Below the pieces are notes generated by a model. It was not told the origin of the DNA, made no database searches, and saw only the letters and a list, made by a program, of their open reading frames with translations. A stretch of DNA of 11,770 nucleotides from the IMG/VR virus record IMGVR_UViG_2703718871_000003; one strand, written 5' to 3'. Below are positions 11,326-11,714 of the stretch, in pieces; the stretch's first letter is position 1; each line of letters starts with the position of its first letter. This stretch comes from a virus. Its lineage: Duplodnaviria > Heunggongvirae > Uroviricota > Caudoviricetes. A program made the position numbers and the translations under genes.

Positions 11326-11714
11326 GCACGGGCCTGTTTCGCTTTGTTACCGGTCTTTTTCCAGGGAGCATCCTGTCCGGCTTCGGCTTCGGCTTCGGCT
11401 TCGGCTTCGGCTTCGGCTTCGGCTTCGGCTCCGGCTAAATCTGTACCGGCCACTGCATGAACCACACCCGCCACGCTCCCCGCATCATCAGCAGACGTCT
11501 GTAGTATTCGCACAGTGAGGCATGGCTCCGCCTCCAGTCGGGCAAGCTGCTCCGGGGTGACCTCAACCTGCTGACGTCCACGCGTGAACAGAAACCCCGC
11601 ACGACGAAACGCCGAACGACTGCAACGCACTTCTGCCAGCACCGTGACAGAATTGTCACCACTGACCTGAAGACCTGAATCATCTGTTGCTGCCACAGTG
11701 TGATGTTCATTCAT
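11322..11714 (-). CDS. Small gp35-like protein with an internal (Ala-Glu)8 repeat and a basic C-terminal tail
   Basis: 130-aa ORF with ATG at 11714..11712 and CGGAGG about 7 nt upstream. Contains AG(AE)8AG encoded by the hexanucleotide tandem repeat, followed by PWKKTGNKAKQARA. Position is just upstream of the gp36-like gene and downstream of what is probably the major head gene (outside the window). Confidence 0.55.
   Translation of the reverse strand: MNEHHTVAATDDSGLQVSGDNSVTVLAEVRCSRSAFRRAGFLFTRGRQQVEVTPEQLARLEAEPCLTVRILQTSADDAGSVAGVVHAVAGTDLAGAEAEAEAEAEAEAEAEAGQDAPWKKTGNKAKQARA
11381..11434. repeat. Perfect hexanucleotide tandem repeat (CTTCGG)x8 plus one degenerate unit (CTCCGG), in-frame within the gp35-like CDS
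   Basis: Counted directly: eight identical CTTCGG units at 11381..11428, then CTCCGG at 11429..11434. On the coding strand this is (GCC GAA)8, giving (Ala-Glu)8. Confidence 0.95.

Follow-up and report, generated by a model that had tools for sequence, protein, structure and literature searches.

The window analysed here, a stretch of 11,770 nucleotides from the IMG/VR virus record IMGVR_UViG_2703718871_000003 (Caudoviricetes), contains a perfect hexanucleotide microsatellite, (CTTCGG)8, inside a gene of 130 codons related to gene 35 of phage Mu. Judged by its primer sites, this array is EHC-5, a variable-number tandem repeat (VNTR) already known as a typing marker of enterohaemorrhagic Escherichia coli (EHEC). 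Match lengths imply that the number of units varies from 1 to 20 among complete-genome records, and the tract falls in a part of the protein that is predicted to be disordered. The explanation that we favour, and consider likely, is that EHC-5 is driven by slippage in the disordered tail of a gp35-like protein, that its length variation is mutational noise, and that the protein may be a decoration protein of the capsid.

Array sequence and identity with EHC-5

The array was read directly from the plus-strand letters. The coordinates, unit, copy number, translation and tail sequence given in a first-pass annotation of the window were all correct.

11381–11428, array in a minus-strand gene, plus-strand letters: eight perfect CTTCGG units
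11429–11434, minus-strand gene: degenerate ninth unit, ctccgg, one substitution off the repeat unit
11325–11366, minus strand: basic C-terminal tail PWKKTGNKAKQARA, by translation

Tandem Repeats Finder delimited the array at 11378–11436 (period 6, 9.8 copies, 98% matches, score 111), which makes it by far the strongest in the window, the four other arrays found by the program scoring 32–46. The chance expectation for a perfect hexamer array of 48 nt in 11.8 kb is about 4e-21. The array lies entirely within the minus-strand open reading frame (ORF) 11322–11714, of 130 amino acids. On the coding strand the unit reads GCC-GAA (register 11382–11429), and (Ala-Glu)8 occupies residues 96–111, with Ala-Gly on both sides and then GQDAPWKKTGNKAKQARA; the C-terminal end of the ORF reads ...VAGTDLAG(AE)8AGQDAPWKKTGNKAKQARA. 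In coding register the degenerate unit ctccgg is the Ala-Gly ahead of the (AE)8 tract, and Ala-Gly units are present in other alleles too. The basic tail carries a second in-frame length polymorphism, KQARA versus KQAKKARA, which corresponds to a 9-bp imperfect duplication.

EHC-5 is a locus of the Japanese scheme of multiple-locus VNTR analysis (MLVA) for EHEC O157, O26 and O111 (Izumiya et al. 2010, Microbiol Immunol 54:569), and the primers can be found in S5 Table of PMC10062581. Both primer sites were located in the window.

11485–11507, minus strand: site of the EHC-5 forward primer ATACTACAGACGTCTGCTGATGA, 0 mismatches
11339–11361, plus strand: site of the EHC-5 reverse primer CCGCTTTGTTACCGGTCTTTTTC, 1 mismatch, at the 5' base

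The primers converge across the array and delimit an amplicon of 169 bp with the CTTCGG array as its sole repeat, and none of the primers for the other loci of the same scheme matches the window. Published EHC-5 counts for O157 run from 0 to at least 13. The count is 0 in most O157 clades, with quartiles of 0, 2 and 10 in clade 3 and of 0, 0 and 7 in clade 12 (PMC10062581), and the first strains listed in S2 Table of that paper have counts of 0, 7, 10 or 11. EHC-5 is polymorphic among EHEC and absent from some of them, and both features were also found for the CTTCGG array; the absence or variable presence of the locus in O157 is as would be expected of a VNTR on a mobile prophage. The window allele, with eight perfect units and one degenerate unit, shows nothing essential that would set it apart from this locus; its basic tail has Trp at position 118, where most other alleles have Arg. 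The hypervariability of the array is, by this identity, already established and in routine typing use. In the EHC-5 typing literature consulted, the locus is handled as a marker, and the encoded protein is not discussed.

Copy-number variation and probable slippage

Of 5426 complete E. coli genomes, 228 contained a match to a 571-nt query across the array. Among the matches listed, those covering the full query were 532–637 nt long, and their lengths formed two series with 6-nt steps, offset from each other by the separate 9-bp indel of the basic tail. Unit counts were inferred from match length in 99 complete-genome records, which yielded 18 distinct counts between 1 and 20, with modes at 10 and 14, and were read directly at six loci, all checked against the sequence.

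UTME-3: 1 unit (DLAEAGQD)
Sakai: 8 units
Strain 137: 13 units
Strain 113: 14 units
Strain 118: 15 units
F1 E4: 20 units

Variation was also seen between close relatives. The prophage lies at an identical chromosomal coordinate in fourteen cattle isolates, which have chromosomes of similar size and are, from these two features, apparently clonal. By match length, 11 of them have 14 units, one has 15 and two have 13. Strains 137, 113 and 118, the three of these whose sequences were checked, share identical flanks of 280 nt and 437 nt. Such one-unit steps between identical flanks fit replication slippage. Further alleles, of 1, 2, 2–3, 3, 7 and at least 14 units, were found in IMG/VR contigs. The expectation of the first-pass annotation that the array should be hypermutable, gaining and losing units without leaving the frame, is thereby supported: the array is hypervariable across strains, and apparently clonal isolates differ in copy number.

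Every unit of the arrays is GCC-GAA, and long arrays are pure; the variant units AG, VE, TE, SE, AK and AA each lie one substitution from the repeat unit. Identical codons and the purity of long arrays indicate that change occurs at the DNA level, and we infer that units are gained and lost by stepwise slippage in replication. Instability driven by a hairpin was ruled out, since the single-stranded array folds worse than its shuffled versions (−5.4 kcal/mol, z=+2.5, empty centroid) and forms no stable hairpin. Simple misalignment is thus sufficient, and RNA structure is not suggested.

The same folding result bears on a role at the level of nucleic acid, by which the array would act as an mRNA structure or spacer tuning the coupling to gp36, or as a protein-binding DNA array, the peptide being incidental. 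The arrangement of the genes would suit such a role, as the end of the array lies on the coding strand 57 nt upstream of the gp36 ATG, which overlaps the TGA of the gp35-like gene (ATGA). However, beyond the poor folding of the single strand, copy number covers a 20-fold range with the downstream gene retained, and one-unit alleles exist. We regard this role as very unlikely.

Since the unit is two codons long, no change in unit number breaks the frame. Phase-variable contingency loci, such as the tetranucleotide repeats of Haemophilus and Neisseria genes, are driven by the same process, slipped-strand mispairing within a coding region at perfect short tandem repeats, and their changes shift the reading frame and switch expression. 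By contrast, the unit of EHC-5 is divisible by three and changes only the length of the peptide. A classical phase-variation switch, in which frameshifts would turn on and off the expression of gp35, or of gp36 through translational coupling, is scarcely credible here. A few rare alleles might be read in its favour: entry P0073 reads the tract in a (Lys-Pro)n frame, and in P0050 and P0054 the frame shifts immediately past the tract and runs on into that of gp36. These frameshifts need additional single-base changes outside the logic of the repeat, and the three entries are probably errors or pseudogenes. Slippage of a 6-bp unit cannot shift the frame, and the length differences, all multiples of 6 with or without the separate 9-bp tail indel, are frame-preserving throughout, which does not correspond to a switch of frame or of promoter spacing.

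In databases, many of the encoded proteins (P0057–P0081) are labelled 'partial' and start or end inside the array, and one IMG/VR contig (locus L010) ends within it; evidently, the array breaks short-read assemblies at the gp35-like gene. Such breaks might suggest that the array, or its length, is an artefact of assembly or sequencing. This possibility is negligible: the array is found in the complete genomes counted above and is routinely sized by polymerase chain reaction (PCR) in MLVA surveillance, which refutes an artefact as far as the existence of the array is concerned.

Identity of the array-bearing gene

From its sequence matches and its neighbours, the array-bearing gene belongs to an E. 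coli prophage of the Mu-like Sp18 type and is homologous to Mu gp35 and HI1506, which upholds the gp35-like assignment made earlier.

11322–11714, minus strand: gp35-like / HI1506-related gene, 130 aa, orthologue of ECs_4975 of prophage Sp18 of strain Sakai
10906–11325, minus strand: gp36 head-tail adaptor gene (Phage_Mu_Gp36), downstream of the gp35-like gene

The Pfam profile FluMu_N (PF17891) matched residues 36–72 with 37.3 bits, above its cut-off of 25.8 bits, and the protein matched phrog_3622 over its full length. PDB entry 2OUT, the nuclear magnetic resonance structure of HI1506 (FluMu gp35 of H. influenzae), was found with E=3.6e-5 from the single sequence and E=4e-13 from the profile, and was also the best Foldseek match of the predicted fold (E=5.9e-4). 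By tblastn, gene 35 of Mu, D108 and SfMu was recovered with 51% identity over residues 23–63 (E=1e-4).

All real genes of the window lie on the minus strand in the order of the phage Mu late operon: the gp35-like gene, gp36, gp37, a DUF2635 protein (gp38), tail sheath, tail tube and gp41, followed by the tape measure protein, the DNA circularization protein and baseplate proteins. A gpT-family major head gene, of which the window holds only the last codons, stands directly upstream of the gp35-like gene in all matching genomes and in Mu, where gene 35 is flanked by T (major head protein) and gp36. The orthologue ECs_4975 has the same neighbours, a major head subunit gene upstream and a gp36-like gene downstream, and likewise an (AE)8 tract, but without the degenerate Ala-Gly unit that the window has at the start of the tract. 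Two labels in current records were set aside: no support was found for 'DNA processing protein', given to ECs_4975 in Sakai, nor evidence for 'head-to-tail connector complex protein', given in one Mu record. A coding ORF antisense to the gene, at 11324–11518 on the plus strand, is likewise without support.

Position of the tract in the protein

The protein was modelled with AlphaFold using an alignment of 21 sequences, and two regions were distinguished.

11496–11642, minus strand: FluMu_N domain, residues 25–73 (beta-hairpin, helix, third strand), the only confidently folded part
11325–11483, minus strand: predicted disordered C-terminal extension, residues 78–130, which holds (AE)n and the basic tail

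The predicted local distance difference test (pLDDT) was 84–92 for residues 22–73, with strands at 25–38 and 41–52, a helix at 54–61 and a third strand at 66–73, and below 50 (means 37–42) for residues 78–130. A model built from the single sequence agreed in outline, with pLDDT of 44–57 for residues 78–130.

Comparison with relatives places the tract at a linker. In distant homologues, an acidic linker of variable sequence with much Pro, Ala and Gly comes after FluMu_N, and most of them, including Mu gp35 and the Edwardsiella, Hafnia and Salmonella proteins, then have a helical, folded C-terminal domain of about 50 residues with the consensus IRAAVAxL...GxPKVxAV...AAL. Mu gp35 and HI1506 resemble the window protein in having FluMu_N with its RRAG motif, the slot between T and gp36, and an acidic Ala-/Gly-rich linker after the domain. 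They differ in that HI1506 was solved as a two-domain protein, an architecture that the window protein does not share, and in that the Mu gp35-type linker is non-repetitive, whereas that of the window protein is a microsatellite-encoded (AE)n. The E. coli Sp18 type lacks the folded C-terminal domain and has (AE)n and a basic tail of 14–17 residues instead. The one-unit allele DLAEAGQD is similar to a stretch of the Mu linker, LAEAGG, and a single Ala-Glu of the ancestral linker is a plausible origin of the microsatellite. In Salmonella homologues the linker is fixed and non-repetitive, which indicates that the instability is specific to the lineage of E. coli and Shigella.

The placing of the tract outside the folded domain, as the first-pass annotation had it, is borne out by the low pLDDT of the extension and by its correspondence to the variable inter-domain linker of homologues. 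The proposal that the tract acts as a length-variable spacer holds only in part: it does sit at the position of a linker, but what follows it is just the basic tail, with no folded C-terminal domain that could be spaced.

The FluMu_N domain also occurs in two to seven tandem copies in large proteins (P0088, of 1815 aa, P0089, P0098 and P0101), P0101 having in addition an N-terminal helix-hairpin-helix DNA-binding motif. This tandem architecture is quite different from that of small decoration proteins.

Possible relation to a capsid decoration protein

When the family profile was compared with the PDB, two matches were obtained, 2OUT, as above, and chain B of 8RKC (E=6.7e-4), the minor capsid protein gp39 of Pseudomonas phage JBD30. 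On the mature head, JBD30 gp39 sits as trimers on the threefold and quasi-threefold axes; it has a Soc-like beta-tadpole fold with residues 1–52 unresolved, and was judged dispensable under mild conditions (PMC11445458). Alignment of the family with gp39 by hhalign gave a probability of 91% (E=1e-6), with the core RRAGF...QL..L..DP.L.V. The core of gp39, a three-stranded sheet and a helix with the motif RxAGF, resembles FluMu_N, and gp39 likewise has a long unresolved, presumably flexible extension.

Gene order points the same way. In JBD30 the major head gene gp38 is directly followed by gp39, the small ORF gp40 and gp41, a Phage_Mu_Gp36 adaptor 28% identical to the gp36 of the window. The gp35-like gene, too, stands after the major capsid gene and ahead of the adaptor, a slot that it shares with JBD30 gp39 except for the intervening gp40. 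The link by remote homology and gene order is weak, and we put the chance that the gp35-like protein is a Soc-like decoration protein of the capsid at about even. The gene had earlier been called structural, a label that rests on the remote homology to a capsid decoration protein.

Distribution and state of the prophage

The whole window is 99.4–99.9% identical to Mu-like prophages in 232 of 5426 complete E. coli genomes, and the carriers, among the matches listed, are largely O157:H7 and other serotypes of Shiga toxin-producing E. coli (STEC). The 571-nt region around the array has 97.9% identity to prophage Sp18 of O157:H7 Sakai. Sp18, with its (AE)8 allele, is predicted to be intact, and its DNA is efficiently packaged (PMC2669165). 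Insertion sites of the prophage are strain-specific (PMC7430833), which implies ongoing transposition; together with insertion even within Shiga toxin (Stx) phages, this indicates that the element is active. The same Mu-like element is annotated within Stx1a- and Stx2c-converting prophages (LC727895 and LC727881), and some complete genomes contain up to four copies of it, evidence of recent transposition.

The copy in the window departs from its closest relatives by the absence of 113 bp at window position 635/636 (636–748 of locus L016). The deletion falls in a YmfQ-family, Mu gp48-like baseplate gene (603–989, minus strand), the product of which is frameshifted past ...EFGYEIDI and has 128 aa versus 186 aa. 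The top 12 complete-genome matches listed are all longer than the window; L016, aligned directly, has the 113 bp, and the lengths of three other top matches with a known EHC-5 count agree. Based on these comparisons, this copy of the prophage is probably defective, or the source assembly is in error. In the database, protein P0085 (154 aa) is a chimera of the first 41 gp35-like residues and the C-terminal part of the YmfQ baseplate protein, which implies either that some prophage has lost its entire tail module or that the sequence was mis-assembled.

Mutational noise or tuned function

Combined, the data are best accommodated by the following explanation. A pure (GCC-GAA)n microsatellite in the 3' part of the gp35-like gene, in Sp18-type Mu-like prophages of E. 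coli and Shigella, would gain and lose whole units by slipped-strand mispairing during replication. Its two-codon unit would keep the frame, so that only the length of (Ala-Glu)n would be altered. The (Ala-Glu)n lies past FluMu_N in the predicted disordered C-terminal extension, where Mu gp35 and HI1506 have their inter-domain linker; a short basic tail takes the place of the folded C-terminal domain found in those two proteins. Lengths from 1 to at least 20 units would be tolerated because the tract is outside the fold. FluMu_N might then be the capsid-binding module of a Soc-like decoration protein and (AE)n a flexible acidic tail on the exterior of the head, a step to which we give about even chances. 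Most simply, the length variation is mutational noise and not a tuned function. The net charge from the AE units to the C-terminus changes from about +4/+6 at n=1 to −15/−13 at n=20, a span not easily squared with an electrostatic role that is finely tuned.

The change of sign can also be read the other way. The tract might be an adaptive, tunable surface feature: a decoration protein occurring up to about 420 times on each head would carry it as a polyanionic brush, and slippage would diversify the surface charge, stability, aggregation or adsorption of virions within a phage population, a contingency by length and not by expression. Consistent with this are the very wide range of alleles, the purity of the arrays and the presence, at the C-terminal end of distant FluMu_N proteins too, of charged appendages that are Ala-rich or coiled-coil and have basic termini (an AK/AE/AD tail in P0086, a coiled coil with a basic end in P0094), which suggests that the C-terminal appendage is a functional, exchangeable module. 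However, alleles of one and of 20 units both occur in otherwise intact genes; a fixed linker suffices in the homologues from Salmonella, Hafnia, Edwardsiella and Mu; JBD30 gp39 was judged dispensable under mild conditions, as noted above; and identical codons throughout point to mutation pressure and not to selection on the peptide. An adaptive role is, on balance, unlikely. Its most specific form, in which (AE)n is a heritable 'charge dial' driven by slippage on a capsid decoration protein, is more doubtful still. If true, lengthening the tract from one unit to 20 would put on the order of 8,000 extra negative charges on the surface of each virion, given up to about 420 copies, and the Mu-like phages of STEC would continually spawn sub-populations differing in stability, aggregation or adsorption.

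Several points weigh against the explanation in terms of neutral slippage in a decoration-protein tail. The distribution of copy numbers is drawn from an uneven sample of sequenced STEC lineages, and counts outside the six loci read directly come from match length. JBD30 gp39 scores 22.5 bits against Pfam FluMu_N, below the cut-off of 25.8, and the presence of an ECs_4975-type protein in the virion is a prediction only. The EHC-5 allele of the window itself may sit in a dead phage. Finally, neutrality is deduced from the tolerance of length changes. We nevertheless consider slippage-driven mutational noise in a disordered gp35-like tail to be the likely explanation.

Other features of the window

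A scan for promoters and terminators around the gp35-like gene gave nothing relevant. Past the end of the major head gene and ahead of the ribosome-binding site of the gp35-like gene lies a GC-rich hairpin on the minus strand (11723–11764, core stem 11732–11750), GCCGGGCU-UGC-GGCCCGGC, with a folding energy of −23.6 kcal/mol (z=−1.5) and without a U-run, which may attenuate or stabilise the transcript. The tape measure gene (5540–7615) contains a stretch of strongly biased composition, Gly/Arg followed by Pro/Ser, GGRQGRGRRKRGPGRGRPVTPPLPPSPVPPSPSSGGAG, at residues 483–528 (about 6032–6169 of the window).

Implications

The array is already among the markers of the MLVA surveillance of EHEC in Japan, and the family of the gene and its position were already known. 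The addition made here is modest: it links a typing marker to the disordered linker of a gp35-like protein and to a probable role in capsid decoration, and current understanding is not overturned by it. EHC-5 would provide a natural example of a two-codon microsatellite that expands harmlessly in a disordered segment of a phage protein, and its natural alleles of 1 to 20 units would be a cheap handle on whether flexible charged tails on phage heads matter.
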